64,000 nt of DNA from Candidatus Nomurabacteria bacterium (GCA_963842815.1 CAWJHU010000003.1:91683-155682); one strand, 5' to 3'; shown: positions 2,279-47,825, counted from the first letter of the stretch. The notes: generated from the letters alone by a model not told the origin. Made by a program: numbers and translations.

Positions 2279-6420
<4,142 letters not shown>

Positions 6421-7239
6421 TTGCCAGGAAGGTAATCCAGACGAAACAACAAGTCCCTGTCCACTATTTCCAATACCAAGTCGCGCAAAGTTACCGTTAC
6501 TGTTTCTATAAAAAATATCACCAGTTGCATCAGAACCGAGATTGAGAGCAAGACCTCCTGACGATATGCTTCCTGTAATGTTAAGCGCTCCGGAATTTAA
6601 AACAGGAATTTGATTGCCGGTAGGAGTTTGAGAAGGGATAAAACCACTGACTGTTTTTGAATTAAGCGCATAGGCGGCAGAAACAATTCTTTGACGCGGA
6701 CTAAGGGTTTCAAAAGAAGTTGCCGAAGCACAAGAGCCAGAAATAGAATTGGCAACATCAATATTTAAATAAACTTCATCAGCACTATTGAAATCAAAAT
6801 TAAGAGCATCCCCGCCGATTGATGTATCGCCAATATCTGCGCTAAGGACTCCATTTTTTACATTGACCGTCATTTTGGATGGAAGATTGGACGGCCATAA
6901 CCTTGTTCCGGCTGTTGCGCTATTATAGAAAGAAAATTTAAAACAATAATTGGTTCCGGAAGAACCGCCTAAAAGATTCCCTGATGAATCAAGTAAAATT
7001 CCTTGATGATGCAAAAGTGAAGGTGCGCCGGCGGCAGAAACAGTATTAAAAACTAAAATGGACACCCAAAAAAGCACCGCAAACAAGCGAGCGATATTAT
7101 TTTTACAAAAAAATCGTTGTGGTGTTTTTTTTATTATCAAATCTATTTTTTACAGTGGATAAATAAATCATACACTGTCTGTATATTATAGGGCAAAAAT
7201 ATATTGGAAGCAATCAAAGAAGGAACGCCGTGTGGAAAA

Positions 7240-13782: not shown

Positions 13783-16700
13783 GAAGTAAACTTTATACAC
13801 CTTCATACACATAGCCATTATTCCCTTTTGGACGGACTTTCCAAGCTTAAGGATTTGGCTGAACTTGCTAAAAAAAACAAGATGCCTGCCCTGGCTATTA
13901 CGGACCACGGCAACATGTATGGCGCCATTGAATTCTATAAATTGGCAAAAAAAGAAGGTATCAAACCCATTATCGGGGTGGAGGCTTATATGACCGCAGG
14001 TTCCCGCAAAGACAGGACAGTTGAATCGGAGGGTGGCAAACGTTATTATCACCTCACTCTTCTGGCAAAAAATTTACAGGGGTATAAAAATTTAATAAGA
14101 TTGGTTACCATTTCAAATCTGGAAGGATACTATTACAAACCCAGAATGGACAAAGAGATTCTCAAAAAATATTCGGACGGAATAATATGTCTTTCCGGAT
14201 GTTTGGGCGGAGAACTTTCCCAAAGTGTTGTCCGCAATGACACAGTAAAATCGGAAAAAATTATTCAGGATTATCAAGAAATTTTTGGCAAGGAAAATTA
14301 TTTTATAGAAATTCAGTGCCATCCTTCCGTGGAAAACGACAAGCAAGTGCGTGAGACTTTAATCAAGCTTGCCCAAAAAAATAATATTCCAGTGGTAGCC
14401 ACCCAGGATTCCCATTATCCATGCAGCGATGACCATGAGGCGCATCACACGCTGTTGCAAATAAATACCCAGGGCGACAGCAAAGAAGCGTCCAAATTTG
14501 AATTTTCGGATGATGATTTTTCTTTAATTGATACCAAAAAAGCATTGGAAATTTTCAAAGATATTCCGGAAGCTGTAATAAATACTCAAAAAATAGCTGA
14601 TATGTGCAATTTGGAATTGGAACTGGGAAATTGGGTTTTCCCGAATTTCAAAATTGAAGTGGGTATGACCTATGATGAAAAATTACGCGAACTTACCTAT
14701 GCCGGTTTTAAAAATATCGGTATAGAAAAAACACCAGAAATTATAGAGAGAGTGGAATATGAGTTGCAAATTATTTTTAAAAAGGGCTATTCGCCGTATT
14801 TTCTGGTGGTGGATGATTTATTGGACTATGCCAAAGATAATGGCATTTTAACTACCATTAGAGGTTCCGTAGCAGGTTCTATGGTCACCTATCTTCTTGG
14901 TATTACCAACGTGAATCCGATTGAATATAAACTCCCCTTTGAAAGATTTTTGAACCCATTTCGTCCTTCTCCGCCCGATATTGATATGGATTACGCCGAC
15001 AACAGGCGGGATGAAATGATAGAATACGCCAAAAGAAAATACGGGGAAGACAAGGTGGCACAAATCGGAACTTTCGGAACAATGATGGCGCGTGGCGCCG
15101 TACGGGATGTCGCTCGCGCTCTGGGTTATCCCTATAACGTCGGCGACAGAATTTCTAAAATGATTCCCATAGGCTCCCAAGGAATGCCTATGACCATAGA
15201 ACATGCCATAGAAATCGTGCCGGAATTAAAAGGAGCCTACAAAGACGAAAAAGACACAAAAAAAATAATAGATTTGGCCCACAAGCTGGAGGGATGCGTC
15301 AGACATATTTCCGTGCATGCGGCCGGGGTAGTTATCGCTCCCGAACCTCTTTACGAATACGTGCCTACACAGTTTGACCCAAAGGGCGGAAAAATAATCA
15401 CTCAATACGATATGTATAGCGTTGAAGATGCGGGGCTTTTAAAATTTGATTTTCTAGGCATTAGAAACTTATCCATTTTAGCCGACAGTATAAGTTTGGT
15501 AAAAAGATTTTATAATATTGACATAGACATAGAGCGCATTCCCCTTGATGATAAGAAAACTTTTGCTCTTCTGGCTTCCGGCCAGACGGAAGGGCTTTTC
15601 CAATTAAACGGCGACGGGATGACTAGATATTTGAAAGAATTGAAGCCCACTTCCATTCACGATATCAATGCCATGGTCGCTCTCTACCGCCCCGGGCCCG
15701 ATGGAATCAATTCCGGAATATATCAAACGTAAGCACGACAGAAAACTGGTAAAATATTTGGACCCGCGAATGAAAAAATTCCTGGGTGAATCTTACGGGC
15801 TTATCGTTTATCAGGATGACCTTCTTTTCTGCGCCATAGAATTGGCCGGCTACAACTGGGAAGAAGCGGACAAATTTCGAAAAGCCGTGGGTAAGAAAAT
15901 TCCCAAGGAAATGGCGGCTCAGAGAGAAAAATTTACCAAAGGCATTATTTCAAACGGGCAGACTCCGGAATTCGCCGAAAAACTTTGGAAAATTTTTGAA
16001 CCATTTCAGGCTTACGGTTTCAATAAAGCCCACGCCGCATCCTACGGACGGGTCGCCTATCAGACGGCTTACATGAAAGCAAATTATCCCGTGGAATATA
16101 TGACCGCCATTCTCACCGCCGAGTCCGGCGATATAGAAAAAATATCCGAAATAATCAATGAGTGCAAAAATATGAATATTCCCGTTCTGCCTCCCAATAT
16201 CAATGAAAGTTTTGGTGGGTTTACTTGCCTGCCGCACGACAAAGACACCATAATAAGTGATAAAAATAAAAGTGAAAAAATAAGATTTGGGCTTTATACC
16301 ATTAAAAACTTGGGCACCGACATCGCTGACGCCATTATCGCCGAAAGAAAAGCAAATGGAAAATTCAAATCCATTACCGATTTTTTGAACAGAATCAAGC
16401 ATAAAAACCTGAATAAAAAATCCATGGAAGCTTTAATAAAATCCGGCAGTATGGACGAATGGGGCGACCGGGGACTTTTCCTGGGGAATCTTGAAGATAT
16501 GCTTTTGTATCACAAAGAATCTTTTAATAAAAATGAAAACCAGACTTCTCTTTTCGGCGGGTCTGCGCAATCCGGAATTCTCGCCCTGAAATTAAAAGAT
16601 GCGCCAAAGGCCACCCAAGCCGAGAAGTTGCTTTGGGAAAAAGAGTTGCTTGGACTTTATATTTCCGGACATCCACTGGACCGTCTGCGTGATAAATTGG

Positions 16701-16993
16701 AAAGCCGGGATATAAATATTAAAAAAATAAAAGGAGAAATCGGAAACGGCATTCCGGTTACCATTGCCGGCATCATTGAAACGGCCAGAATTGTCATTAC
16801 CAAAAACAATGACCGCATGGCCTTTTTGAAAATTTCGGATTTGACCGATTCCATAGAGGCGGTTGTGTTTCCTTCCATCTTCAAAGAAGCGGTGGATATT
16901 TTCGTTCCGGAAAAATGTATTGCTTTTTCCGGCAAAGTTTCCCTTCGCAACGGCGAAAAGAGCATCATCATAGAAGCGGTGAAGGAGGTATAA
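13783..16993 (+). CDS. dnaE: DNA polymerase III alpha subunit DnaE, interrupted by a +1 frameshift at ~15688-15700
   Basis: PHP domain FIHLHTHSHYSLLDGLSKLKDLAELAK..ALAITDHGNMYGAIEFY. Frame A ends ...ALYRPGPDGINSGIYQT* while frame B continues (STAPGP)MESIPEYIKRKHDRKLVKYLDP..LGESYGLIVYQDDLL. The conserved YRPGPMESIPEYI run spans the two frames at the run cgccccgggcccg. Start set at the ATG at 13783 (MKEEVNFIHLH) because the longer ORF overlaps gap. Confidence 0.85.
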
Positions 16994-17007
16994 AAAGAGA
17001 AAAATTT

Positions 17008-17220
17008 CTAGTGGTAATCCTGTTTTGAGTCGCGTATTTTTATTGCTTGTTCCAAGGCTTTTTCAGGTAAAATTTCTTTGTTTTTTAGACTATTTATTAA
17101 AGCTTCAAGAGCAGGAATTTCATAATCATTTGCTCCCATTACGGCAACTTCTCCTTTAATCGCTTCTATTTCATTAATAGTTTTTTCTATAAGATTATTG
17201 TTATTTTTCCCTTCAAACAT
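17008..17220 (-). CDS. Hypothetical small protein (70 aa)
   Basis: ORF only; no recognisable motif. Confidence 0.3.
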   Translation of the reverse strand: MFEGKNNNNLIEKTINEIEAIKGEVAVMGANDYEIPALEALINSLKNKEILPEKALEQAIKIRDSKQDYH

Positions 17221-17233
17221 ACATTTTAAAAAA

Positions 17234-17761
17234 TTAATTATAAAGACTCATCGCTTTTTCTTTGCCTTCGGTAAAAATAATTTCCAAAGCCTCGACGACT
17301 TTTTTGGAAATTTTTTTTAATTCATTTAATTCCTTTTCTTTGTATTTGCCAAGCAAGAATTTCAACACCTCCTTCTCCCCTTTCGGTTTTCGTATCTTGC
17401 CGGATGGTGTGGCTGGCGAAGTGCCAATTCTGATGCGCAAAAATTCTTCAGATTTCAATGCTTTGATGATGGAGCCCAAACCATTGTGTCCTCCGGAAGA
17501 CCGATTGAAAGAAATTTTTATTTTCCCTAAAGGCAAATCAATGTCGTCGTAAATCACCACAAGGTCTTTTAAATCTTTTTTTGATTTGATTAGGGGCGCA
17601 ACCACTTTGCCGGAGTTATTCATAAATTTATCGGGATAAACAAACTTAATTTTGTCTTTTAGGTTTAATTTTTTTTCAACCATTTCCAGCACAATAAAAC
17701 CGGTATTATGCCTGGTATTTTCATATTCTTTGCCCGGATTTCCTAAACCAACGATTAATTT
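17234..17761 (-). CDS. pth: Peptidyl-tRNA hydrolase
   Basis: MKLIVGLGNPGKEYENTRHNTGF is the classic Pth N-terminus. Start taken at the internal Met; the longer ORF adds 15 aa. Confidence 0.85.
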   Translation of the reverse strand, partial: KLIVGLGNPGKEYENTRHNTGFIVLEMVEKKLNLKDKIKFVYPDKFMNNSGKVVAPLIKSKKDLKDLVVIYDDIDLPLGKIKISFNRSSGGHNGLGSIIKALKSEEFLRIRIGTSPATPSGKIRKPKGEKEVLKFLLGKYKEKELNELKKISKKVVEALEIIFTEGKEKAMSLYN

Positions 17762-38969: not shown

Positions 38970-39007
38970 CGAGAAAGTTTTTACTTTTCTATGATACAAT
39001 TTCTTTC

Positions 39008-39568
39008 ATGAGTATAAGTTACGAATTAACTGTATTTACCATCTTAAGCATAGTCATTATTTCTGTATCATGGCGATCATTATTTAATATCAAAGCTCAT
39101 GGTTTTTACAGGTTTTTTGCCTGGGAAGGTATAGCGTGGCTACTAGTAAATAATTATAGATACTGGTTTATTAATTTATTTTCCTTTTTACAAATTATTT
39201 CATTTATATTATTAGTGTGTGCATTAGTTCTTGCCATGACCGGTTTCGTTCTTATAAAAATAAAAGGTAAAATTGACAAGAATCGCAATGACAATACGGC
39301 ATACTCATTTGAAAAAACCACAGAATTAATTGAGGTAGGAATTTTTAAATATATCCGACATCCTATGTATAGCTCTTTGATATTTCTCACTTGGGGAATA
39401 TATTTTAAAAATGTTGTCTCAATAAATCTTTTAATAATTTCTATTTTGTCCACTGTTTTTCTGTTTATCACAGCAAAAGTAGAGGAAAAGGAAGACTTGA
39501 AATTCTTTGGTGAAAAATACAAGGATTATATAAAGAAGACTAAAATGTTTATCCCTTACATAATATAA
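39008..39568 (+). CDS. Isoprenylcysteine carboxyl methyltransferase (ICMT)/phospholipid methyltransferase-family membrane protein
   Basis: Multi-TM protein with C-terminal GIFKYIRHPMYSSLIF (ICMT/PEMT signature). Start set at MSISYE because the longer ORF runs into the tRNA. Confidence 0.65.
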   Translation: MSISYELTVFTILSIVIISVSWRSLFNIKAHGFYRFFAWEGIAWLLVNNYRYWFINLFSFLQIISFILLVCALVLAMTGFVLIKIKGKIDKNRNDNTAYSFEKTTELIEVGIFKYIRHPMYSSLIFLTWGIYFKNVVSINLLIISILSTVFLFITAKVEEKEDLKFFGEKYKDYIKKTKMFIPYII

Positions 39569-39590
39569 TGTATTTTAGTATAATTTTTAT

Positions 39591-40040
39591 ATGAAAGAAA
39601 AAATCACTCTCCATGCCAAGTGGCTTATCAAGGCTCCTCTAACGGAGGTGTTTAACATAATGACTGACTTTGAAAAATGGCCTGAGTATTTTCCGAAAGT
39701 TGCGGAATCTATACAAGTCATAAGGCGCGAAGGAAATTATTTGGAAATGGATGCGACCGTCAAATCGTTCGGCCAAAAGTTTCCAGTAAAAATGAAATAC
39801 CAGATTCTCCCCGGAAAGGGGTATCATTTCGGATAATGAAAGCCCTAAATTTGGAACTTCTGGCCACGAAGAATTGTTGCTCTCTGAACGTCCAGAAGGA
39901 ACCGTGATCGATTACACTTATCAAGTTGCCATCCATAAACGCTGGCTCCGTATAGTTGCACAACCATTGATTGGTTGGTTTTCCATGAAATACTGGCAGA
40001 AAGCTGTCATAGATGAACTAAGAAAAAGGCTCGAGAGATA
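39591..40040 (+). pseudogene. SRPBCC (polyketide cyclase/Bet v1-like) family gene interrupted by a frameshift near 39809-39835
   Basis: Frame 1: MKEKITLHAKWLIKAPLTEVFNIMTDFEKWPEYFPKV...KMKYQILPGKGYHFG*. A shifted frame continues ISDNESPKFGTSGHEELLLSERPEGTVIDYTYQVAIHKRWLRIVAQPLIGWFSMKYWQKAVIDELRKRLER*. The joined ~150 aa match SRPBCC size and architecture. The shift lies at the run ccccggaaagggg. Confidence 0.6.
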
Positions 40041-40062
40041 AAATATTGGTTATAATTAAGTT

Positions 40063-40737
40063 ATGAAAAAATATTTAAAAATAATTATATTGGGAATAAT
40101 TGTTGTAATTGTTGTTGGTGTTTTTGCTTATTATCAAAAACCAAAACAGGAATCTATTACGGGTACTTATATTGCTCGCCTGGCAAACGATGTTTATGTT
40201 CTTACAATTCTTTCCGAACAGGGCGAATCTTTTACCGGAACGCTTGATATTAAAAATTTTGAAAAAGATAGCTCAACCGGCACTCTGGCAGGCACATATA
40301 AAAATGGAATTTTGCTGGCAGATTATACATTTCAATCGGAAGGAACCGAATCCGTTGGCTGGGTAGCATTCAAAAAAGTTGCAGACGGTTTTATCCGGGG
40401 GTTCGGTAATGTTGACCCTGGAACAAAAACTCAATCCATTGATTTAAATAAAATAACTTTTGATTCTTCTGTTGTTTATAAGCTTTCGGATACAATTGTA
40501 AATTCTGTAATTTTTGATTGCGCCGAAAATAAAAGCATCAAAGCGGTTTTTTATAAAGACAGAGTTGAGATAGATTTGAATGACGGCAGAAATATGTCCT
40601 TGCCTCAGGTTTTGTCCGGTTCCGGGGCGCGCTATGCAAATTTTAATGAATCTTTTGTATTTTGGAATAAGGGAGATACTGCCTTCGTAAACGAAGGCGA
40701 TGCGATGACATACAAAGACTGCCTGATAAAAAATTAA
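40063..40737 (+). CDS. Membrane-anchored MliC-like (lysozyme inhibitor) domain protein
   Basis: N-terminal TM. C-terminal FDCAENKSIKAVFYKDRVEIDLNDGRNMSLPQVLSGSGARYANFNESFVFWNKGDTAFV...YKDC has the MliC SGSGA(R/K)Y motif and the conserved Cys pair. Confidence 0.5.
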   Translation: MKKYLKIIILGIIVVIVVGVFAYYQKPKQESITGTYIARLANDVYVLTILSEQGESFTGTLDIKNFEKDSSTGTLAGTYKNGILLADYTFQSEGTESVGWVAFKKVADGFIRGFGNVDPGTKTQSIDLNKITFDSSVVYKLSDTIVNSVIFDCAENKSIKAVFYKDRVEIDLNDGRNMSLPQVLSGSGARYANFNESFVFWNKGDTAFVNEGDAMTYKDCLIKN

Positions 40738-40812
40738 TTTTTAATACTCTTTTATTTATTTGAAGCAAAAATAAATTGCCTTAGTGGAAATCCTGTTATA
40801 TAATGCCAATCT

Positions 40813-41223
40813 ATGAAATCTATAAGATTTTTTGTATTTTTAATCATAATATGTGCCTCTTTATCAGTAATTCAAAAACCCGTTATGGCTGCTACTCTGC
40901 CTTTTCCCAGCGTAGAAATCCTGTTAAAAAGCATTGCCAGCGGAAAGGTTCTTTCTACAAATACGGATAACAATGGGAATTTCAACGTAGGGGTGCCGGA
41001 AGAAAGCGGGGCTTATAATCTTTATATCGGCAATGAAAGCCTTCCTCCGGTAAAAATTTCGGCAAAGAAAAATACAGTCAGCGGCCGGGTTGTGATTCTG
41101 ACCGAGGGCACTACGACAAAGGATCCGACGCCTCCGGCCCCGATAAAAAAGACTGTTCCGAAAAAGACTACTCCGGTTAAAAAATCGGTTTCTCCCGCTA
41201 TCACTAAGCCTAAACTTCCTTAA
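40813..41223 (+). CDS. Secreted protein with a Pro/Thr/Lys-rich C-terminal tail (hypothetical)
   Basis: Signal peptide MKSIRFFVFLIIICASLSVIQKPVMA. C-terminus TKDPTPPAPIKKTVPKKTTPVKK. Confidence 0.45.
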   Translation: MKSIRFFVFLIIICASLSVIQKPVMAATLPFPSVEILLKSIASGKVLSTNTDNNGNFNVGVPEESGAYNLYIGNESLPPVKISAKKNTVSGRVVILTEGTTTKDPTPPAPIKKTVPKKTTPVKKSVSPAITKPKLP

Positions 41224-41232
41224 ATAAAATTT

Positions 41233-41817
41233 ATGAAAAAAGTAAAAAAAATATCAGAAAAATTCATATTGTTCTTAAATAAAAAATATGGCATAACGCC
41301 GGATGTTCTGGTGTACATAAAAATATTTTCAGCTCCATTGCTCGCCCTGCTCATTTCAAAAGTTATTTCCAACAGAAGTCTGTTGCTAGCCATAATTGTT
41401 CTTATCATTTATATCAAAGTTGTGGCAATAGATTTCTATGCTGAAATCTTAGCCCATATGGCAAAAGAAAAAAATAATACCGATCATTTATATGGAAGCA
41501 TTCTTGATAAAATGAGCGGAAAAATTTTACTCATTCTTGTTCTTATTCCCTTCGGCCTTAATCTTTATACTTTTCTGATTATTTTGGCGGAATCAATATG
41601 GGTTTTTCAAAACATACATTCTCCCCTCTATGAAAAACAGAGGGCAAGCCGTGCTGAAAAAATAAAAATATGGCTGCAGATAGTTTTAATACCAATTTTA
41701 ATATTGCAAAGAACAACGAGCTTCATTCCGGGAATGCTTGTTTACCTGTACATTATTACTACTATTGTTTTTACTTACATTCCGATTTACACAAATTATT
41801 TCTATTTTGAAAAATAG
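41233..41817 (+). CDS. Hypothetical polytopic membrane protein
   Basis: About five hydrophobic helices. No recognisable motif. Confidence 0.4.
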   Translation: MKKVKKISEKFILFLNKKYGITPDVLVYIKIFSAPLLALLISKVISNRSLLLAIIVLIIYIKVVAIDFYAEILAHMAKEKNNTDHLYGSILDKMSGKILLILVLIPFGLNLYTFLIILAESIWVFQNIHSPLYEKQRASRAEKIKIWLQIVLIPILILQRTTSFIPGMLVYLYIITTIVFTYIPIYTNYFYFEK

Positions 41818-42030
41818 AATTTAAAATTGTGGACATAATACAGAGAAGTTGGAACCAATTGGAAAGCTGGGTATTTGAAGCATCTGAAGTTATTAAAAGT
41901 AATTTGATACCTAAAAATAGCCTTATTTATACTTGATATTAGCTTTTGTTGATAGCACATTAAGTTAATGGAATTTAATAGTAAAAATAATAGTGATTTT
42001 AGAAGAAAAATAGTATAATAGTCTTAAATT

Positions 42031-42561
42031 ATGGAAATAAAAGAATGTAGGGATTTAGCAGAGAAGATTGTTGCTGAGTTTAACCCAGAGGGTCTTTCAC
42101 CTTTCCCATATCAGAAAATTGAAGAAAAAAATAAGGATTTAAAAATTTTCTTGTCCAACATAGAAGATAATAATATTTCAGGTGCCATAACTTACGATAA
42201 AGAGACTCCTGAGTTTGTAATTCTTATCAATAAAAATAAACCACCATCAAGACAGTATTTTACTGTTGCACACGAGTTGGGACATTATTTTCTTCACAAG
42301 GATATTCTTAGAGAAGAAGAAATTTTGGTTGACAATGACAACATACTTGAAGGTAGAACTTTGTTTAGATTAGACACTACAAAATCAACTATTATCGAAA
42401 CAGAAGCAAACAATTTTGGAGCTTCCTTAATTATGCCTGAAAACCAAGTTTATAAAGCTTGGAACGAATTAAAAAACATTGAAGAATGTGCAAAAGTATT
42501 TAATGTTTCTGTTTTAGCGATGACAATTAGATTAACTAAATTAAATTTAGTTCAAGAATAG
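42031..42561 (+). CDS. ImmA/IrrE-family (DUF955) zinc metallopeptidase
   Basis: YFTVAHELGHYFLH carries the HEXXH motif in the ImmA/IrrE context. 176 aa. Confidence 0.7.
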   Translation: MEIKECRDLAEKIVAEFNPEGLSPFPYQKIEEKNKDLKIFLSNIEDNNISGAITYDKETPEFVILINKNKPPSRQYFTVAHELGHYFLHKDILREEEILVDNDNILEGRTLFRLDTTKSTIIETEANNFGASLIMPENQVYKAWNELKNIEECAKVFNVSVLAMTIRLTKLNLVQE

Positions 42562-42565
42562 CTAT

Positions 42566-43054
42566 ATGGCACCCTTAGAAGAAAACAAAAAAGAGAAAAC
42601 TTTACACAAACCAACCAAAAGGAAATCATTTTCTTTTGATTTTGAAAATCAGAGAAAAAGAATACAAGAAATAATAGCAAAACAAAATAGCAATAATGAA
42701 CATTCAAAAATTTATCGTTATACTCCTCACAATGATTCTAGGAGTCTTGATGAACGAATTAGAGAACAGGCTAAAATTAAAAAAGAAGAGTTATTGAACG
42801 AAGAATTTGCTCAAAACATGTTATTAAAAAAAACAACTTTAAACAGATTGTTTCTTTTTCTTTCTGTAGAAACACTAGTTATCTTTATTTTAGCAATTCT
42901 TCAGGGATTTAAGTTAACAAGCGGTTTCTATTTAGAAGACTGGAGTTTTAGATTACTTGTTGCTGTAACTATTTCTCAAATAACTTATATGTTGCAATTT
43001 GCTGTTAAACATCTGTTTCCCAACAATAAAGAAGAAAAAGAAGAAATTAAGTAA
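42566..43054 (+). CDS. Hypothetical protein with a charged N-terminal half and two C-terminal TM helices
   Basis: ORF directly downstream of ImmA (4-nt gap). TM helices LFLFLSVETLVIFILAIL and LLVAVTISQITYMLQFAV. Confidence 0.4.
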   Translation: MAPLEENKKEKTLHKPTKRKSFSFDFENQRKRIQEIIAKQNSNNEHSKIYRYTPHNDSRSLDERIREQAKIKKEELLNEEFAQNMLLKKTTLNRLFLFLSVETLVIFILAILQGFKLTSGFYLEDWSFRLLVAVTISQITYMLQFAVKHLFPNNKEEKEEIK

Positions 43055-43092
43055 ATTAATCAATGTCAACGATTAAACAGAAAGAAGCACTA

Positions 43093-43172
43093 GAAAAAAT
43101 AGTGGAGGATACCCCACTATATAGGTTAAACTTATACGTCTACAAACCTTATTCTAAAATTAGGTGATTTCC
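43093..43172. repeat. Direct repeat copy A (~80 bp) overlapping the 3' end of the RNase H-like gene
   Basis: gtggaggataccccactatataggttaaacttatacgtctacaaaccttattctaaaattaggtg aligns with copy B at 44004-44085 at roughly 75-80% identity. Confidence 0.6.
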
Positions 43173-43975
43173 TTTATAGAAACGTTGATTTCGATGTGAT
43201 GTTTAAATACCTTACTAATCTTTAGTATATATTTATGTCCACGTTGTAATTCTGATTTTTGTTGAGCATTTACGTATGCTTTTATTGTTTTACCTTCAAA
43301 ATCTCCTGAACATACTTCAAAACAAATTTCAAATTGATCTCCAACAGGTTCCCATGCATAAACACGAACTTTAATGTCATTAATATCAAGCTGGGAATAA
43401 TTTACCTCAGGACCATCATAAAGTCTCTTTATAACACGTCTTTGTTTCTTTTCTATCAATTTACGACCCCTAACATCTGTTTTTTTACCAAACTTTGATA
43501 ATTTATCAGCTACCTTGTTTCTTTTTTCTGGTACATAGTTAATTGACACACTTCCACCTACAGTTTGTTCAAGCTTTACTCTAGTTTTATCGATTTTATC
43601 TAACAGGTCCCTGTCCTTTATTGGTTTATTTTCATAATTCATCCAACCATTTCTGCGCCAATCTTTTATACGATATCGATTAGTAAATTTATTATCAGTA
43701 GCGTTAAACCTGTCGGTATACAATTCCACTCCTGAAGCTTTTTTTAGTATTAATGGATTCTTCTTTCCAAAAACAAGTAATTCTGTCATTGCCTCAATGA
43801 GACTTATTAACTCCAGTCGATTAATACCCTGTCCATCATTTCTTATAAAATGTGCTATGGGTTCTAGTTCAAAAGAATCTGGAAATTCAATAATAAAACC
43901 ATTTCCTCCGGTTTGCTTGGTATCATAGTCCATTGCCCCATCACAGTGAATTTGTATTGCGTGAGGATTATTCAT
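43160..43975 (-). CDS. RNase H-like domain protein (N-terminal RNase HI-type fold) with an unknown C-terminal domain
   Basis: IQIHCDGAMDYDTKQTGGNGFII (compare RNase HI ..TDGS..NPG.GGYG), NRLELISLIEAMTELL (catalytic Glu region), ELYTDRFNATD (TDS-like Asp). Flanked by ~80-bp direct repeats. Confidence 0.45.
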   Translation of the reverse strand: MNNPHAIQIHCDGAMDYDTKQTGGNGFIIEFPDSFELEPIAHFIRNDGQGINRLELISLIEAMTELLVFGKKNPLILKKASGVELYTDRFNATDNKFTNRYRIKDWRRNGWMNYENKPIKDRDLLDKIDKTRVKLEQTVGGSVSINYVPEKRNKVADKLSKFGKKTDVRGRKLIEKKQRRVIKRLYDGPEVNYSQLDINDIKVRVYAWEPVGDQFEICFEVCSGDFEGKTIKAYVNAQQKSELQRGHKYILKISKVFKHHIEINVSIKEIT

Positions 43976-44003
43976 GTTTTTATTATATCAAATACATGAA
44001 CGG

Positions 44004-44085
44004 AGGGGGTGGAGGGTACCCCACTGTGTTTAATAAACTAATAAGTCTATAAACCTCGTTATAAAATTAGACGTATTTTTTAATA
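44004..44085. repeat. Direct repeat copy B (~80 bp) upstream of the RNase H-like gene; contains the GGGTACCC palindrome
   Basis: gtggagggtaccccactgtgtttaataaactaataagtctataaacctcgttataaaattagacg. Same orientation as copy A. Confidence 0.6.
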
Positions 44086-44092
44086 GGAACTA

Positions 44093-44995
44093 TTACCAAA
44101 ACTTAAGCCAATTAAATACCTTTTGATACCATTTTGATTTTACTGGTTCTGGGTTTGTTTGAGAAATTGTGTCAGTTTTTATTGTAATTAGTGGTTGTTT
44201 CGCGGACAAAGAAGATATCGGGGTAATAACTTTCTTTATTTTTGGTTTAGGTTGTATAATTTCTTTTTTCTCAACATTAAGATCATTGGGTGGATTAATT
44301 ACAGAAGTACTTGAAGAGACTACTGGAGCTATGGGGATTAACACACATTGTTTTTTACCTGTTGTGTCAAATGTATATCCTTCATTACAAGAACAATAAA
44401 CATTCTTATCGTCGTGTTTATTTGGTGAAGTTGTTGAATTCTGACCAAACTCTTTTTTGCACTCAGTATCAGAAGCTTCTTTTTCTGTAATAATTTTACC
44501 ATGCCCATCATTTACATAACCTGTGTTTGGTATACAGCTTCCATGTGAATCCTCTACGGAATTTATCGGGCAAGAACACTTTCCATTTACATCAAAGCTA
44601 TATTGATAAGAACATGCACATTTCCCAGTATTTTTATTATAAAAACTATGAGGGTCAGGATTGTGGCAAGAATTATAATTATCAAGATCCTTTAGCATTG
44701 CAGATATATCAGGCGTATATGTTCTGTTGATAGGTTCAGTATAAAGTGGTGTTGAGATAGAATTATCATTAGTAAAACTATTAGAGACACATTGTCCACT
44801 ACTACTCATAACATAACCAGATTCACATTTGCAATATGCATCACCAAAGTTCTCACCTATAGTTTGATGATCTCCTTCACAATACAAAGTGCCAACACCG
44901 GGGACATCAACACTGGCTTGTGCTTGGATTTTTTTAATAGGTAAAACCATTATTACAGCAACTAATATTAAAACAAATAGTAGATTTTTTTTCAT
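44093..44995 (-). CDS. Secreted cysteine-rich repeat protein (hypothetical)
   Basis: Signal peptide MKKNLLFVLILVAVIMVLPIKKIQAQA. Repeated C-x-C-x(3-6)-Y-x(5-8)-G-x-C modules (CKCESGYVMSSSGQCV; CACSYQYSFDVNGKCSC; CSCNEGYTFDTTGKKQCV). Confidence 0.55.
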   Translation of the reverse strand: MKKNLLFVLILVAVIMVLPIKKIQAQASVDVPGVGTLYCEGDHQTIGENFGDAYCKCESGYVMSSSGQCVSNSFTNDNSISTPLYTEPINRTYTPDISAMLKDLDNYNSCHNPDPHSFYNKNTGKCACSYQYSFDVNGKCSCPINSVEDSHGSCIPNTGYVNDGHGKIITEKEASDTECKKEFGQNSTTSPNKHDDKNVYCSCNEGYTFDTTGKKQCVLIPIAPVVSSSTSVINPPNDLNVEKKEIIQPKPKIKKVITPISSLSAKQPLITIKTDTISQTNPEPVKSKWYQKVFNWLKFW

Positions 44996-45021
44996 ATAAT
45001 TTTATTAGTTAGAAAGCAAAA

Positions 45022-45094
45022 AGCCCATCACGGGTAGAGACCGAAGTCTCTCGTGTCAGTTTCCCGACACGGCGTATAAGGCGACCCCCTGATG
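45022..45094 (-). ncRNA. Candidate structured RNA element (73 nt): 7-bp closing helix enclosing hairpins, one with a UUCG tetraloop on the minus strand
   Basis: cccatca-cgggtaGAGACcgaaGTCTCtCGTGTCagtttcccGACACGgcgtataaggcgacccc-tgatggg. On the minus strand the first hairpin reads GAGAC-UUCG-GUCUC. Lies just 5' of the start of the minus-strand gene 44093..44995. Confidence 0.3.
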
Positions 45095-45418
45095 GGTTCT
45101 TTATTCCTTATACGACTTGTATTACCGTGCCTTAAAATATAGATATAAATCAATATAAATATATAAGTAAGGTTTAGGCTACTATATTTATTAAGTTATA
45201 TTTTAATGGTACAACTTCACAATGGAATTATCAATATAAAAATAAGATAAGAATAGTCGTAAATGTTTAAAATATTTGATAAATAAAAGCTCAATTTCGT
45301 AATTTGTGTATTTTTGATGGTATAAAAACCTATGTTTTATGGCTGTTTTTAAAATAAAGATAGTTATTCACATAATATATCGCCCTATTTTAGCGCTAGT
45401 GAATATAATCACTACACG

Positions 45419-45673
45419 ATGAGAAGTATAAGGGCAAGATTTAAAGAACAAGAATTAAAAAATCCATTTAATGGAGCATCTATTAATTTAGTTAGAGCAG
45501 TTCGAGGGAAAAAGTTTTCACGCAAATCGTTAGTGAAAGCCTTTAACGAATTAATACCAGAAAGAGAATATGAAAAAAATGAGCAAAAAGAGCTTATTGA
45601 TTATTTAGAGAATCAAACGAACCTACCTGAGGAGGGCGAAATTAAGGGCAAAAATGCCTTAGGAACAGTATAA
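45419..45673 (+). CDS. Hypothetical small protein (84 aa)
   Basis: ORF only; lies inside the AT-rich element. Confidence 0.35.
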   Translation: MRSIRARFKEQELKNPFNGASINLVRAVRGKKFSRKSLVKAFNELIPEREYEKNEQKELIDYLENQTNLPEEGEIKGKNALGTV

Positions 45674-45722
45674 AACATCTATGATAAGTATTGATAGGTG
45701 TAAAGAAATATTGGGTGGAAAT

Positions 45723-45827
45723 ATGGCAGATTCTGAAGTTGAGAAACTTCGAGAAACTCTTTATTCAATGATCGATTCAATATTAGATAATTACTTTGAA
45801 GAGTTTAGTGGTAAAATAGATATATGA
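45723..45827 (+). CDS. Small ORF (~34 aa) overlapping the recombinase start; possible accessory/RDF-like peptide
   Basis: ATG GCA GAT TCT GAA GTT GAG... MADSEVEKLRETLYSMIDSILDNYFEEFSGKIDI*. Its stop overlaps the ATG of the recombinase gene. Confidence 0.2.
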   Translation: MADSEVEKLRETLYSMIDSILDNYFEEFSGKIDI

Positions 45828-47386
45828 AAAAAGCAGTAATATATTGTCGAGTATCTTCCGTAAAACAAAGCACTGAGGGACATGGGCTTGATAGCCAAGA
45901 ATATCGTTGCAGAGAATATGCAAAACAAAAAGATTATGAAGTTGTAAAAGTCTTTGGGGATACTTTTTCAGGTGGTGGAGATTTTATGAACAGACCAGCA
46001 ATGTCTTCTCTTTTGGGTTTTCTAGACAAAAATCTTGCAACTAATTTTGTAGTTATTTTTGACGATTTGAAAAGACTTGCCCGTGATACTGCTTTTCATC
46101 TTAAATTAAGAAGAGAACTCACTGCTAGGGGAGCAAAAGTAGAATGTTTAAATTTTACTTTTGAAGAAACCCCTGAAGGGCAATTTATTGAAACTATAAT
46201 GGCTTCTCAGGGTGAGTTAGAAAGAAAACAAAATCAAAGACAAGTAATCCAAAAACATAAAGCTCGTCTTGAAAATGGTTATTGGTCTTTCTGTTCTCCG
46301 GCAGGATATAAAATGGGCAAGAACCCTATTCATGGATATATTCTAAATAGAGTTGAACCTGAAGCCAGTATAATTAAAGAAGCACTTGAAGGATTTGCCT
46401 TTGGAAGGTTTGCAAATCAAGTTGAGGTTCAAAGTTTTTTACAATCAAAAAAGTTTCGTGGTTTAAAAAAAGTTAGTTTAGATTCAGTGAAAAAGCTACT
46501 TACAAGGTCAGTATATGCGGGATATGTGGAATATAAAGAATGGGATGTGAGTAGAAGAATCGGACACCATGAACCAATTATTGATTTAGAAACTTTTGAG
46601 AAGATTCAGGATAAACTAAACGGAAAGATAAAAGTTTTTTCAAGAAAAGACAATAGTAAAGAATTTCCTTTAAGAGGTTTTATTTTGTGTGCTAAATGTA
46701 TAAAGCCAATGACAGCAAGTTGGACAACAAGCAGGAATGGAGAAAAACACCCTTATTATCATTGTAAAACGAAAGAATGTGATTTGAGAGGTAAATGCAT
46801 CAGAAGAAAAGACATGGAAGACAAGTTTGAGGTTATTTTACGTTCAATAAAACCAAAGGAAAAGACCTTAGCCCTTACAAAAGAGATTCTGCTTGATGTA
46901 TGGAATAAAAGACTTGCTGATGTAGATAATCTTAAAAAGAATCATGAGAATAGTTTAGATGAAGTCCGTTCAAAGATAAGAAACTTATTAGATAGATTAT
47001 CAAAAATTGATAATGAAAATTTAATAAAAACTTACGAAAAAGAAATAGGGAAACTTACTGAAGAAGAACAGATATTAGAAAATCAGGCTCAGGTCATGCG
47101 AAGTAGAAAGCCAGACTTTGGAACCGCCCTTGATATAACATTTAATTTTCTTAAAAACCCTTATCTTTATTGGAAAAAAGATGATTTAAAGTCAAAACAC
47201 CTAGTTCTAAAATTGGTCTTTGAAGACAAAATTATTTATAACAGAGAAACAGGATTTGGAACCGCTAAATTATCTTTACCATTAAGGGTATTTGAGCTAA
47301 ATGAGCTTAATGATTCTTATGATGTGGACCCAAGCGGACTCGGACCGCTTACCTCCTCATTGCAAATGAGGCGCTCTACCAGATGA
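45824..47386 (+). CDS. Large serine recombinase (resolvase/invertase catalytic domain + recombinase domain + zinc ribbon + coiled coil)
   Basis: N-terminus KKAVIYCRVSSVKQSTEGHGLDSQ (catalytic Ser in the YxRVSS context), recombinase domain, CAKCIKPMTASW...HPYYHCKTKEC zinc ribbon, C-terminal coiled coil. 520 aa. Confidence 0.85.
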   Translation: MKKAVIYCRVSSVKQSTEGHGLDSQEYRCREYAKQKDYEVVKVFGDTFSGGGDFMNRPAMSSLLGFLDKNLATNFVVIFDDLKRLARDTAFHLKLRRELTARGAKVECLNFTFEETPEGQFIETIMASQGELERKQNQRQVIQKHKARLENGYWSFCSPAGYKMGKNPIHGYILNRVEPEASIIKEALEGFAFGRFANQVEVQSFLQSKKFRGLKKVSLDSVKKLLTRSVYAGYVEYKEWDVSRRIGHHEPIIDLETFEKIQDKLNGKIKVFSRKDNSKEFPLRGFILCAKCIKPMTASWTTSRNGEKHPYYHCKTKECDLRGKCIRRKDMEDKFEVILRSIKPKEKTLALTKEILLDVWNKRLADVDNLKKNHENSLDEVRSKIRNLLDRLSKIDNENLIKTYEKEIGKLTEEEQILENQAQVMRSRKPDFGTALDITFNFLKNPYLYWKKDDLKSKHLVLKLVFEDKIIYNRETGFGTAKLSLPLRVFELNELNDSYDVDPSGLGPLTSSLQMRRSTR

Positions 47387-47481
47387 GCTATGGGCCCAAT
47401 ACAAGAGATAAAGCCATTCTATATTATTTTTTTAATAATGCAAATTTGCCTTTTTTTTTGTTTCAGTTATTATTTTTAGAC

Positions 47482-47552
47482 GGGCCTATAGTTCAGTGGT
47501 AGAACGCGTCCATGGCATGGACGAGGTCGGAGTCCGATTCTCCGTAGGTCCA
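47482..47552 (+). tRNA. tRNA-Ala (anticodon GGC)
   Basis: Acceptor GGGCCTA/TAGGTCC with a G3:U70 pair (alanine identity element). D-arm GTTC-AGTGGTA-GAAC. Anticodon arm CGTCC-ATGGCAT-GGACG. T-arm CGGAG-TCCGATT-CTCCG. Confidence 0.75.
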
Positions 47553-47555
47553 CAT

Positions 47556-47629
47556 GCACTCTTAGCTCAGTTGGTTAGAGCGTGCGATTCACATTCGCAA
47601 GGTCGTAGGTTCGATTCCTACAGGGTGCA
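47556..47629 (+). tRNA. tRNA-Val (anticodon CAC)
   Basis: Acceptor GCACTCT/AGGGTGC. D-arm GCTC-AGTTGGTTA-GAGC. Anticodon arm TGCGA-TTCACAT-TCGCA. T-arm GTAGG-TTCGATT-CCTAC. Starts 3 nt after the preceding tRNA. Confidence 0.8.
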
Positions 47630-47660
47630 CAAAAATGCTTTAGCATTTTTGTGCACCCTG
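47618..47660. repeat. Perfect 18-bp inverted repeat whose left arm is the 3' end of tRNA-Val
   Basis: cagggtgcacaaaaatgc-tttagc-gcatttttgtgcaccctg. The arms are exact reverse complements. Confidence 0.8.
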
Positions 47661-47724
47661 TCAGGGCCTATAGTAAAGTGGTATTACGCGGCATTCGCAT
47701 TGCCGAGGCGCGAGTCCGATTCTC
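47654..47724 (+). tRNA. tRNA-Ala (anticodon CGC)
   Basis: Acceptor GGGCCTA/TAGGTCC (G3:U70). D-arm GTAA-AGTGGTA-TTAC. Anticodon arm CGGCA-TTCGCAT-TGCCG. T-arm GCGAG-TCCGATT-CTCGC. Confidence 0.75.
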
Positions 47725-47825
47725 GCTAGGTCCACAGCTTGACTTTTATTGTATATATGATATACTTTCTTTGGATTTAAATAGAAAATAATGTTTGTTC
47801 ATTCCACTAATATAAGGAGACGCAA

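Follow-up and report, generated by a model that had tools for sequence, protein, structure and literature searches.

A probable compact integrative element at the 3' end of tRNA-Ala(UGC) in a Candidatus Nomurabacteria bacterium, with a predicted attP site inside its serine recombinase gene

Tyrosine integrases leave a displaced 3' fragment of the tRNA gene as a direct repeat. Serine integrases have been thought not to use tRNA genes, and a survey that contained a few tRNA-using serine integrases stated that the use of tRNA and tmRNA genes was unreported for such enzymes (S-Ints) and that proof was needed (Mageeney et al. 2020; PMC7192596). For serine integrases of the LI/A118 paradigm, a 5-bp shift of the half-site motif between attB and attP has been described (Rutherford et al. 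2013; PMC3783163). The self-splitting integrases of the SSV type are, according to a review, tyrosine recombinases found exclusively in archaea (PMC8371274), and in the literature found, an insertion that swaps the last residues of an integrase is described only for these archaeal tyrosine enzymes. Among the tycheposons, whose remnants pile up distal to the tRNA, 27 of 937 carried a large serine recombinase, and no mention of a split gene for this recombinase was found in that work (Hackl et al., bioRxiv 10.1101/2020.12.28.424599).

The DNA analysed here, called the window, was a 64,000-nucleotide stretch from a Candidatus Nomurabacteria bacterium (GCA_963842815.1 CAWJHU010000003.1:91683-155682). 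It was concluded that positions 41829-47329 very probably represent a complete, compact, non-phage integrative element, which a large serine recombinase (LSR) of its own inserted at the very 3' end of the tRNA-Ala(UGC) gene. Compared with the systems above, a whole clade of serine recombinases appears to use tRNA genes here with a defined geometry.

Table 1. Features of the element and of its host flanks (positions are those of the window).
Feature	Position	Strand	Remarks
CDP-alcohol phosphatidyltransferase gene	41233..41817	+	Host left flank; Pfam PF01066
Palindromic hairpin ttctattttgaaaaatagaa	41800..41819		Just outside the element, B' side; read directly from the sequence
Integrative element	41829-47329		5.5 kb; identical GTGGAC core at both ends
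attL core GTGGAC	41829..41834	+	T at 41828 also common to attR
P' arm, detached 3' "tail exon" of the LSR gene	41829..41936	+	Encodes VDIIQRSWNQLESWVFEASEVIKSNLIPKNSLIYT and a stop, in the LSR frame at attR
Invariant TTGGAACC	41849-41856	+	Inside the tail exon
ImmA/IrrE-type (CapP-like) metalloprotease	42031..42561	+	PF06114 (Peptidase_M78) 2.7e-20; PADLOC capP 4.9e-30
162-aa protein	42566..43054	+	Hydrophobic C-terminal part, judged by eye
24-nt repeats	43138-43161 and 44045-44068		83% identity; flank the RNase H-like gene; repeat family D2
RNase H-like protein	43160..43975	-	PF00075 1.1e-7, N-terminal domain
Cys-rich secreted protein	44093..44995	-	Signal-peptide-like N-terminus
LOOT RNA (RF03000), 45036-45180, with conserved 3' extension and U-run	45017..45180	-	
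Conserved 84-aa ORF	45419..45673	+	Integration module
Conserved 48-aa ORF	45681..45827	+	Overlaps the LSR start codon; MISIDRCKEILG..LR..LY.M..SILDNYF
LSR, integrated isoform, 520 aa	45824..47386	+	Pfam domains
P arm of attP/attR	47294..47323	+	In the LSR ORF; 10-residue linker ELNELNDSYD, poorly conserved
attR core GTGGAC	47324..47329	+	Complement of tRNA-Ala(UGC) nt 69-74
tRNA-Ala(UGC), target	47324-47397	-	Host gene, intact; ARAGORN; Rfam 63.6 bits; G3:U70
tRNA-Ala(GGC), tRNA-Val(CAC), tRNA-Ala(CGC)	47482-47735	+	Host right flank, outside the element
Predicted attP			AGCTTAATGATTCTTATGATGTGGACATAATACAGAGAAGTTGGAACC

Element boundaries, target gene and cargo

The left core was the exact start of homology with the sibling elements, the sequence further to the left being unrelated. 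The right core covered the terminal part of the acceptor stem, the discriminator base and a single nucleotide of the trailer of tRNA-Ala(UGC), the T-loop of which reads TCCGAGT (U55C). This core of 6-7 nt was the sole end-to-end repeat of the element, and a displaced tRNA-Ala 3' fragment in the form of a direct repeat was looked for within the 64-kb stretch and not found. The lowest-GC segment of 5.5 kb in the 64 kb started at 41750 and had a GC content of 0.31 vs a mean of 0.389 (sd 0.035), which is lower than chance would give; this GC minimum coincides with the element. In the preliminary description an AT-rich element had been placed at 41820-47760, next to a tRNA cluster that was said to begin about 95 bp past the recombinase. 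The low GC of the cargo region was borne out, the left boundary was within 10 nt of the true one, and the cluster is present. However, the element ends at 47329, the three plus-strand tRNA genes are host DNA, and the anchor is not this cluster but the minus-strand tRNA-Ala(UGC), which had been missed and over which the recombinase ORF extends in antisense with its final 63 nt.

An empty site was found in a close relative, a Ca. Nomurabacteria MAG (L096; RNR 90% identical), in the order tRNA-Asn, CDP-alcohol phosphatidyltransferase (58% identical to that of the window), 22 nt and an unoccupied tRNA-Ala(UGC), with the flanking genes on both sides matching this locus. The site was likewise unoccupied in two further genomes (L097 and L098), and the synteny of the genes past the right-flank tRNAs (RNR, DUF192 and a decarboxylase) was kept in L012, L006 and L096. 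The comparison indicates an ancestral empty site in which the 3' end of the phosphatidyltransferase gene faced the 3' end of tRNA-Ala(UGC), and the hairpin beside the left core was probably the shared terminator of this junction. Terminator-like hairpins followed by T-runs were observed ahead of the left end in most related loci. An exact-match search with the proteins of the flanking genes returned only fragments of the same genome, and population variation was not seen.

The ImmA/IrrE-type protease was not conserved in the sibling elements, the C-terminal half of the RNase H-like protein had no assigned domain, and homologues of the Cys-rich protein were present in the elements of L001 and L018 (three elements in one BLASTP cluster). 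No Pfam, PHROG or NCBIfam match was obtained for the 162-aa protein. PHROG matches were limited to three products of the element (integrase, ImmA-like protease and RNase H), and no replication or transfer function was identified in it. The protease, the RNase H-like protein between direct repeats and the Cys-rich protein with a signal peptide agreed with what had been described before. The previously claimed transmembrane protein stood as an ORF, its hydrophobic stretch being seen by eye only, and small ORFs were indeed present, while the supposed AT-rich spacers between them hold two conserved small ORFs and a LOOT RNA.

The LOOT RNA scored 61.8 bits, above the gathering score of 46.4 (model positions 1-121), and shared its strand with the Cys-rich gene, ending 40 nt upstream of it. 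Eight further elements carried this RNA with 51-85 bits, and the arrangement was the same in 9/9 LOOT-carrying elements among the 16 scanned. Nothing on the function of LOOT RNA was found in the literature searched. Judged by its placement, this orphan RNA recurs in these elements as a leader of cargo genes for secreted proteins, and it gains by that a genomic context that it lacked until now.

The 84-aa ORF was located directly upstream of the LSR in nine elements (54-69% identity) and had no match in Pfam, NCBIfam or PHROGs; the 48-aa ORF was found in 13 elements, the circular sibling L091 among them, and had no family match in PHROGs or PADLOC. Both are candidates for a regulator or a directionality factor. 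The conserved module consisted of a 75-107-aa ORF, a 45-87-aa ORF and the LSR, all else being variable cargo that differed completely between related elements. The earlier claim of an integrative element was supported by this difference together with the empty site in L096.

The recombinase and its att sites

Residues 1-502 of the LSR were encoded by the element; from 47330 onwards, the final 19 codons and the stop codon were supplied by the antisense strand of tRNA-Ala(UGC). The Resolvase domain (PF00239, 1.1e-25, residues 4-153) contained the YCRVSS motif at residues 7-12, and PF07508 (Recombinase) and PF13408 (Zn_ribbon_recom) were both above the cutoff. In the AlphaFold model of P0007, a homologue of 83% identity, the ribbon was followed by a long coiled coil (helices 345-393 and 397-425), so that the 520-aa recombinase with its catalytic motif, Zn ribbon and coiled coil was recovered as first described. 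The homologues number hundreds, one of them (P0001) being 100% identical to the window LSR. The best PDB sequence matches were the TP901-1 and SPbeta integrases. The best NCBIfam match was CcrB, and as its score of 107.4 bits was far below the cutoff of 900 (CcrC, 55.7 vs 900), the LSR was not considered a Ccr equivalog.

The family was spread over CPR bacteria and Proteobacteria. In at least 64 of 80 genome loci the 3' end of the LSR was overlapped by a gene on the opposite strand, which was a tRNA of 13 isoacceptors in 49 and a tmRNA in 14-15. The distance from the LPLRVF motif to the t(m)RNA 3' end was 30 nt in 5/5 measurable loci (those with the anchor and a called tRNA), and the tmRNA 3' ends in L013 and L018 were consistent with this spacing. 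As read from these loci, the family has specialised in tRNA and tmRNA genes, at their 3' ends. A tblastn search for LSR relatives in 50,697 phage records found none, and only three, all distant, were present among 2.9 million viral contigs.

The left end of the element contained the detached tail of the LSR gene, with the conserved motif VD..SWNQLESWVFE...NSLIY. When both strands of 1.48 Mb were scanned with a left-end regular expression, every match was on the strand of the LSR and preceded it by 1.8-7 kb. The left end was open and in the LSR frame in 20/20 unique copies; the codon-position entropy of these copies was 0.93, 0.67 and 1.23 for positions 1, 2 and 3 (order 3>1>2), and the Ser codons alternated between AGY and TCN. 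The tail was contiguous with the LSR in 14 of the best 120 homologues. One such LSR, 83% identical to that of the window, was encoded on a 4300-nt contig (L091), the 30-nt terminal overlap of which was therefore taken to indicate a 4270-bp circle; in principle, this contig could also stem from a tandem duplication instead of a free circle. From the contiguous tail in the homologues and the in-frame left end it was concluded that attP lies inside the LSR gene, and therefore that integration replaces the tail with tRNA-antisense codons. In the P0007 model the tail formed a helix of low confidence (pLDDT 36-56), and the catalytic, DNA-binding and coiled-coil domains were unaffected by the split. 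In L001, an IS110 transposase gene was located just downstream of the odd C-terminus of the LSR.

The four att sites could be aligned as attL (B'-P'), attR (P-B), attB (B'-B, from L096) and attP (P-P', from L091), with GTGGAC common to all. A tandem array in L010 had a P1-P2' junction at the same GTGG, and the crossover was placed within GTGGA by the L010 tandem junctions and by core differences in tmRNA-targeting elements. The empty site, the circle and the tandem junctions are indirect signs that the LSR may recombine attP with attB. The sequence VSLYHLLEL, present at the C-termini of P0008 and P0039, was considered as an attP form and rejected; it had no match in the 64-kb stretch, and in L010 it proved to belong to another element, which had inserted between an older LSR and the tRNA and whose left end it forms.

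The length of the P arm was fixed at 30 nt, its protein sequence was variable, and the linker was predicted to be disordered in the P0007 model (residues 491-506, pLDDT below 50). The host half-site, the B arm, was formed by the acceptor and T arms of tRNA-Ala(UGC). Across 11 elements GAACC occupied nt 18-22 in P' and nt 13-17 in B, which is a shift of 5 nt; the otherwise invariant GAACC of the B arm was GGACC in the window, the sole exception among the 11, and for this reason binding may be poor at the window copy, or this copy may be trapped at its site. No conserved motif was found in the P and B' arms across the same 11 elements, which makes the att sites unusually asymmetric. Dyad symmetry between P and P' was limited to weak TTATG/CATAA matches in the window, with no P-arm motif in the 11 elements. 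A union IUPAC pattern of the exact attB, attP, attL and attR of this strain gave 0 matches in metagenome contigs. The family P' motif gave more than 120 matches in metagenomes; 80/80 loci examined were integrated (attL-type), with no new circles.

Proposed mechanism and competing explanations

Sequence comparison indicates that the LSR inserts the element at the 3' end of tRNA-Ala(UGC) and that the tRNA is kept intact. In the excised circle the LSR gene reads across P, core and P' and encodes a protein of about 535 aa with the conserved tail; upon integration the last ~34-35 codons are cut off from it and remain at the opposite, left end, and the LSR ORF instead runs antisense into the tRNA for 19 codons. 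Such a tail exchange would yield two enzyme isoforms and could bias the reaction: the full-length LSR from the circle would integrate, and the truncated chromosomal form may be silent, or it may need the small ORFs as directionality factors before it can excise. The tRNA terminator would be displaced by 5.5 kb, and the resulting read-through, antisense to the LSR mRNA, could dampen expression in the integrated state. A wider proposal is put forward only tentatively and is considered possible rather than probable. A clade of LSRs from several phyla would use tRNA/tmRNA 3' ends with attP in the ORF, and the exchange of a helix for an antisense peptide, alone or with a directionality factor, would set the direction or activity of recombination. 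These enzymes would be the bacterial serine counterpart of the archaeal "suicidal" integrases, and the CPR mini-elements would be a main route for LOOT-led secreted-protein genes.

It is rather unlikely, though a reading of some weight, that the element was inserted as proposed and is now an immobile relic with an inactive truncated recombinase. The integrated ORF does not have the conserved tail, the attR B arm carries the GGACC exception, orphan left-end arrays (L011, L032 and L129) show that such elements decay in place, and attP and attB of the strain were not found in metagenome contigs. However, all parts are intact, namely the core at each end, the tail exon of 35 codons with its conserved motifs, an LSR that retains the catalytic serine, and the 84-aa and 48-aa ORFs. 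The split leaves the catalytic, DNA-binding and coiled-coil domains untouched, and attP forms are common among the homologues (14 of the best 120), so that excision or persistence as a circle does occur in the family. The left end could also be only a DNA site, the P' arm, or a separate gene starting at GTG, the contiguous database ORFs being incidental read-through. The invariance of TTGGAACC even at synonymous positions points to a constraint at the DNA level, GTG could serve as a start codon, and the tail is modelled with low confidence. This explanation was judged improbable, as the conservation spans 25-35 codons, far past a half-site of ~25 bp, a second motif, ENSL(I/V)(Y/C), occurs at the very C-terminus, third positions are the most variable and the Ser codons change class. 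Further, the frame always equals that of the LSR at attR, and ahead of the GTG lies unrelated host DNA that lacks a conserved ribosome-binding site.

The element was also weighed as a remnant of a larger temperate phage, as had been suggested in the preliminary description. ImmA/IrrE protease and RNase H-like genes do occur in phages (PHROG matches), and the GC content is low. The phage origin was considered highly improbable, since structural, packaging, lysis and replication genes were absent (Pfam, PHROGs), the search of phage records and viral contigs had given zero and three distant relatives, respectively, both ends are intact and homologous to the ends of siblings of 4-8 kb, and the sibling L091 is a 4.27-kb circle. 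Next to no credence was given to a domesticated chromosomal recombinase that was inherited vertically and neighbours tRNA-Ala(UGC) by chance. The LSR, the 84-aa ORF and tRNA-Ala(UGC) do occur together in L006, L008, L011 and L012, and the identity of the LSR (65-82%) is like that of host proteins. This is contradicted by the empty sites in L096, L097 and L098; moreover, these four loci carry unrelated cargo between left end and LSR, the family occurs at 13 tRNA isoacceptors and tmRNA across phyla, and attP forms exist. A conserved chromosomal resolvase, which had been named earlier as the finding that would speak against an integrative element, is thus not what the locus contains.

Comparison with known systems

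The question of why tyrosine and not serine integrases favour tRNA genes becomes directly testable with this clade. The element offers a bacterial example, from the other superfamily, of a self-splitting integrase, and its two natural isoforms could be compared in a simple plasmid assay. Genetic tools for the CPR/Patescibacteria hardly exist, and few of their mobile elements have been described. A self-contained module of 4-6 kb for which attP and the attB in tRNA-Ala or tmRNA are known could serve as an integration vector.

The LSR shares the Resolvase/Recombinase/Zn-ribbon/coiled-coil architecture with the phage serine integrases (LI/A118, Bxb1, phiC31, TP901-1 and SPbeta SprA), and like them the element has a short identical core instead of long repeats; as in LI/A118, the half-site motif is 5 bp nearer the centre in attB than in attP. 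Unlike these enzymes, the window LSR is not phage-borne, its target is the 3' end of tRNA/tmRNA genes, attP lies inside the integrase ORF, and only one arm per site carries a conserved motif. In the integration-dependent immunity of mycobacteriophages, reportedly described by Broussard et al. in 2013, attP is said to lie in the repressor gene, so that integration alters the C-terminus of the product and thereby the state of the element, and the integrase is said to be a tyrosine recombinase. The attP-bearing gene is the repressor in that case, whereas in the window element it is the serine integrase itself.

The SCC-type cassettes (Ccr) are similar in their small non-phage cargo, LSR-driven movement, tandem arrays and insertion at the 3' end of a housekeeping gene without its inactivation; they differ in their target, the protein gene rlmH and not a t(m)RNA, and their ccr genes are not split by attP. 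Tycheposons are likewise small cargo elements beside tRNA/tmRNA genes (Hackl et al., bioRxiv 10.1101/2020.12.28.424599), but they belong to Prochlorococcus, mostly employ tyrosine recombinases and often carry replication genes, the comparison with the window element being one by description only. Of their features, tRNA-proximal cargo was present in the element, no replication gene was found in it, and no tRNA-fragment repeat was found in the window.

The SSV-type "suicidal" integrases (SSV1, pTN3 and pT26-2) resemble the LSR in that the att site lies in the integrase gene and integration into a tRNA gene partitions the ORF, and they resemble the window element in being a compact "all in one" module (PMC8371274). 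They are tyrosine recombinases, whereas the window LSR is a serine recombinase with CPR bacteria and Proteobacteria as hosts; in the SSV type the split separates functional parts of the enzyme, whereas here only the last ~34-35 residues are swapped and the recognised domains stay intact.

Boundaries and target site of the element

The anatomy of the element was resolved to the single-nucleotide level, and it holds for a large family. No repeated tRNA fragment was found within the window, as expected for a serine recombinase. The sequence TGTGGAC at 41828-41834, which follows the CDP-alcohol phosphatidyltransferase gene (41233..41817), was identical to that at 47323-47329. Related loci (1.48 Mb, both strands) were searched with the left-end pattern GTGG-N13-19-TTGGAACC. 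Matches were obtained in 15 loci and the window (two each in the loci L011 and L032), exclusively on the strand of the large serine recombinase (LSR) and always 1.8-7 kb upstream of an LSR. Homology between the elements started exactly at GTGG; the DNA to the left was unrelated and in many cases formed a hairpin ahead of a T-run.

An empty site was identified via homologues of the left-flank gene in L096, a Ca. Nomurabacteria MAG with proteins similar to those of the window (RNR 90%, GH130 79%, SIMPL 78% and EamA 84% identity). The order in L096 was tRNA-Asn, CDP-OH_P_transf, 22 nt, tRNA-Ala(UGC) on the minus strand, YceG, RNR and DUF192, so that the flank synteny was kept on both sides and the element was absent. 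The tRNA-Ala(UGC) gene was also unoccupied in the related loci L097 and L098. Based on the empty-site comparison and the alignment of the four att sites, it was concluded that the element extends from 41829 to 47329. The predicted attB of the window strain is GAAAAATAGAATTTAAAATTGTGGACCCAAGCGGACTCGGACC, and the predicted attP of the window element is AATGATTCTTATGATGTGGACATAATACAGAGAAGTTGGAACC.

Alignment of the four att sites
Site	Left arm	Core	Right arm
attL (window)	..tttaaaatt	GTGGAC	ataatacagagaagttggaacc..
attR (window)	..tcttatgat	GTGGAC	ccaagcggactcggacc..
attB (L096, empty site)	..tctcttttg	GTGGAC	cctacaggactcgaacc..
attP (L091, circular form)	..tctaacgat	GTGGAC	atgataagtaaaagttggaacc..

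The preliminary description had correctly recognized an integrative element from a real observation, and its left boundary of 41820 was nearly exact. The three plus-strand tRNAs beside it were recovered by ARAGORN and Rfam, but they proved to be host DNA, and the actual target, a minus-strand tRNA-Ala(UGC), had been overlooked. This tRNA overlaps the last 63 nt of the LSR ORF in antisense, the final 19 LSR codons (DPSGLGPLTSSLQMRRSTR) and the stop codon being its reverse complement. The cargo genes listed earlier were all present by ORF and domain analysis, and the AT-rich spacers held a LOOT RNA and two small conserved ORFs. The GC minimum among 5.5-kb windows of the 64 kb started at 41750 (0.31 vs a mean of 0.389, sd 0.035).

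Features of the element, its target region and LOOT RNAs of related loci
Feature	Position	Strand	Remarks
tRNA-Ala(GGC), Val(CAC), Ala(CGC)	47482-47735	plus	ARAGORN and Rfam
tRNA-Ala(UGC), fourth tRNA	47324-47397	minus	ARAGORN and Rfam, 63.6 bits, G3:U70
LSR, 520 aa	45824..47386	plus	domains Resolvase, Recombinase, Zn_ribbon_recom
ImmA/IrrE (CapP-like) protease	42031..42561		cargo
162-aa protein	42566..43054		cargo, no family assignment
RNase H-like protein	43160..43975	minus	cargo, flanked by 24-nt repeats
Cys-rich secreted protein	44093..44995	minus	cargo
Small conserved ORF	45419..45673
Small conserved ORF	45681..45827
LOOT RNA (RF03000)	45036-45180	minus	61.8 bits vs gathering score 46.4
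LOOT RNA with 3' extension	45017-45180	minus
LOOT RNA, L001	6258-6382
LOOT RNA, L004	7603-7716
LOOT RNA, L009	7804-7928
LOOT RNA, L010	7466-7578
LOOT RNA, L013	9504-9620
LOOT RNA, L019	7886-8007
LOOT RNA, L032	9030-9166
LOOT RNA, L047	8444-8577

Recombinase family and att-site logic

Hundreds of close LSR homologues (about 519 aa, 50-83% identity) were found in CPR bacteria (Paceibacterota, Zambryskibacteria, Nomurabacteria), and the wider family numbers several thousand homologues. The family genome scan, with one genome per species, yielded 80 loci, which also covered Alphaproteobacteria (many Rhodobacteraceae), some Gammaproteobacteria and one Melainabacteria MAG at 45-49% identity. No LSR relatives were detected in 50,697 phage records, and three distant ones were the only relatives among 2.9 million viral contigs.

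In protein alignments, the conserved LSR body stopped at ...LPLRVFEL and was followed by ~10 variable residues and by tails resembling antisense translations of tRNA 3' halves. According to the annotation, an opposite-strand tRNA overlapped the LSR ORF end in 49 of the 80 loci; these comprised 13 isoacceptors (Ala GGC/CGC/UGC, Met, Arg CCG/ACG, Tyr, Val, Thr, Lys, two Ser and Leu), and tRNA-Gln occurred in L004. A tmRNA held the equivalent opposite-strand position in 14-15 of the 80 loci, and 7 of the remaining 17 loci ended at most 60 nt from the match. The LPLRVF motif and the tRNA 3' end were 30 nt apart in all five measurable loci, and the tmRNA 3' ends of L013 and L018 agreed with this spacing. 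On two alphaproteobacterial-type IMG/VR contigs (L086 and L088), the LSR tail tracked a tRNA antisense for ~5-15 codons and then diverged, and no tRNA was detected there. Elements of this branch may bring along some of the tRNA, the crossover then lying further inside the gene.

The crossover was located using L010, a tandem array in which a second element of 6 kb, carrying an LSR of its own (15903..17630), lies between an older LSR (10001..) and tRNA-Ala(UGC). Its junctions were gatGTGG/tgtcatt... and tttgGTGG/accgtac.... Elements targeting tmRNA had C as the sixth base of the core in attL vs G or A in attR. Based on these junctions and base differences, the crossover was placed inside GTGGA, that is, tRNA nt 70-74. 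Judging from the sequence, the tRNA is restored without change after insertion.

In 11 elements, the B arm (t(m)RNA side) carried TCGAACC, a motif antisense to the T-loop, whose GAACC lies at nt 13-17 past the core, and the P' arm of the element carried TTGGAACC, with GAACC at nt 18-22, which is 5 nt farther out in attP than in attB. Such an outward shift is a hallmark of zinc-ribbon-domain site recognition by serine integrases (Rutherford et al. 2013, PMC3783163). No conserved motif was found in the P and B' arms of the 11 elements, and the att sites are therefore asymmetric. Position 55 of tRNAs is nearly universally U/Psi55. The T-loop of the window tRNA-Ala(UGC) (47347-47353) is TCCGAGT, position 55 being C, vs TTCGAGT in relatives, and this base converts the B-arm GAACC to GGACC, the sole case among the 11 elements. 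Because of the GGACC arm, the window copy may be poorly excisable.

The sequence TTTGGAACCGC occurred twice in the LSR 3' region, at 47117-47127 (DFGTA) and 47255-47265 (GFGTA). Lying 60-200 nt ahead of attR, both copies include the P'-arm octamer in direct orientation; they could be either a codon coincidence or accessory binding sites.

Division of the recombinase gene by attP

The left-end GTG GAC shares its frame with ..GAT GTG GAC.. at the LSR end, and translation from 41829 gives VDIIQRSWNQLESWVFEASEVIKSNLIPKNSLIYT followed by a stop codon. The frame was open for at least 22 codons in all 20 unique left-end sequences, with entropies of 0.93/0.67/1.23 by codon position and Ser codons alternating between AGY and TCN. 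The left ends encode VD(I/T/M)..x(S)WNQ(L/I)ES(W/Y)(V/I)F.., often finishing with ENSL(I/V)(Y/C). Among the matches listed in a metagenome scan for the P' motif were more than 120 contigs, nearly all of which encode the tail, preceded by terminator-like host flanks.

The tail was contiguous with the LSR body in 14 of the best 120 database homologues (526-543 aa, e.g. P0007, P0025, P0027 and P0031), on contigs of 3.6-5.9 kb with element genes on either side of the LSR. P0007, 83% identical to the window LSR, is encoded by L091, a 4300-nt k=31 contig that was recognized as a 4270-bp circle due to its terminal overlap of 30 nt. From the left-end frame, the contiguous tails and this circle, it was concluded that the excised form encodes an LSR of ~535 aa. 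For the window element, this full-length LSR corresponds to 45824-47329 joined to 41835-41936. As read from the DNA, the last 34 LSR codons are left behind at the opposite end of the element upon integration, 19 tRNA-antisense codons being fused instead. The AlphaFold model of P0007 had a standard LSR body (mean pLDDT 84) and a disordered, P-arm-encoded linker (491-506); the tail appeared as a low-confidence helix (501-530), and the model thus gave nothing firm on its role.

Sequence comparison showed site-specific insertion at the tRNA 3' end, the site logic of serine integrases, a split ORF with two isoforms and a circular sibling. We proposed that attP x attB recombination would be performed by the full-length isoform made from the circle, and that the loss of the tail after insertion could silence the LSR or alter its directionality, the two small conserved proteins being obvious candidate directionality factors. 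The original tRNA-Ala(UGC) terminator, probably a hairpin found at 41800-41819, has been moved 5.5 kb from the tRNA. With the terminator displaced, tRNA transcription would have to continue through the LSR gene in antisense, and this may add to LSR repression. It is possible, if somewhat doubtful, that the tail swap is a real regulatory switch.

Cargo, neighbourhood and comparison with known systems

Comparison of 15 integrated elements with defined ends and three contigs in attP form revealed one conserved module, made up of the LSR, an ORF of 75-107 aa (9 loci) and an ORF of 45-87 aa that overlaps the LSR start (13 loci); neither small ORF matched a family. Everything outside the module was variable cargo, in which no replication, transfer or virion genes were recognized. 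The window thus holds a minimal integrative cargo element, and the prophage remnant offered as another reading was wrong. Orphan left ends in arrays (L011, L032 and L129) show how repeated integration and decay build small islands beside the target gene.

LOOT is an orphan metagenomic 'sRNA'. Of the 16 CPR elements scanned, 9 carried it, and no copy lay outside an element in those loci; it was always located 9-48 nt upstream of a same-strand cargo ORF with a signal-peptide-like N-terminus. Its conserved 3' extension (acccgtgatgggctttttg in the window) is complementary to the apical loop of the long hairpin and ends in a U-run; it may form a pseudoknot or a terminator. These features fit a cis-acting leader or attenuator better than a trans sRNA.

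Further features were observed near related elements. A 15-20-nt copy of the target tRNA 3' end lies 150-195 nt left of the element end in L008 (5789-5938), L061 (2663-2814) and L011 (4754-4948 and 5623-5783), and is absent in the window. The ~150 nt between copy and left end are mutually homologous in L008 and L061, and the L008 termini repeat the last ~8 nt of the tRNA in inverted orientation and could close a multi-hairpin RNA. The feature may be left over from other elements, or it may represent a tRNA-like gene. An IS110-family transposase gene (L001, 11820-12893) lies just downstream of a 'stranded' LSR and is absent from the matching L010 stretch. Group I introns (RF00028) occur beside or near elements in the CPR loci L006 (11877-12124, beginning about 300 nt past the target tRNA), L010 (2053-2312) and L001 (2534-2830).

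Within the window, 2.26 kb of lower-GC DNA (0.35; 38971-41232) parts tRNA-Asn from the CDP-OH_P_transf gene; in L096 these directly adjoin (7928-8000 and 8001-8573). Encoded there are a PEMT/ICMT-like membrane protein, an 81-aa truncated fragment of an SRPBCC/polyketide cyclase, a lipoprotein with an MliC domain and a secreted protein that is CarboxypepD_reg-like. This DNA is probably a second insertion, one that lacks an integrase, at the tRNA-Asn 3' end. An 18-nt inverted repeat (38871-38888/38900-38917, 94% complementary) and, 11 nt upstream of the tRNA-Asn gene, a reverse-complement copy of its 5' end were also noted. An ~11-kb stretch (27.8-38.9 kb) contains a RhuM/Fic-domain protein (30325-31293) and an AbiEii toxin gene preceded by a partner ORF (33948-35305), the latter two being type IV toxin-antitoxin-like. 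In L096, ~4 kb of mostly unannotated genes take the place of this stretch, which is a further variable region between conserved flanks. At 4000-6500, over the minus-strand ORFs 2279..5668 and 5665..7140, GC climbs sharply to 0.56 (window mean 0.39); rRNA was ruled out, as Rfam gave no match there.

Full-text literature searches, incomplete in coverage, turned up no description of the LSR clade or its arrangement, and this negative is not evidence of absence. The LSR belongs to the mechanistic class of large serine integrases, but its target, t(m)RNA 3' ends, is unusual: Mageeney et al. 2020 (PMC7192596) called tRNA-gene use by serine integrases unreported and needing proof, and Hackl et al. 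listed 27 LSR-bearing among 937 tRNA-associated elements. Also unusual is its behaviour as a non-phage, SCC-like cassette, CcrB being the best, far sub-threshold NCBIfam match. A third unusual point is the integrase gene split by its own att site, an arrangement described in a 2021 review as exclusive to archaea and their tyrosine 'suicidal' integrases (PMC8371274).
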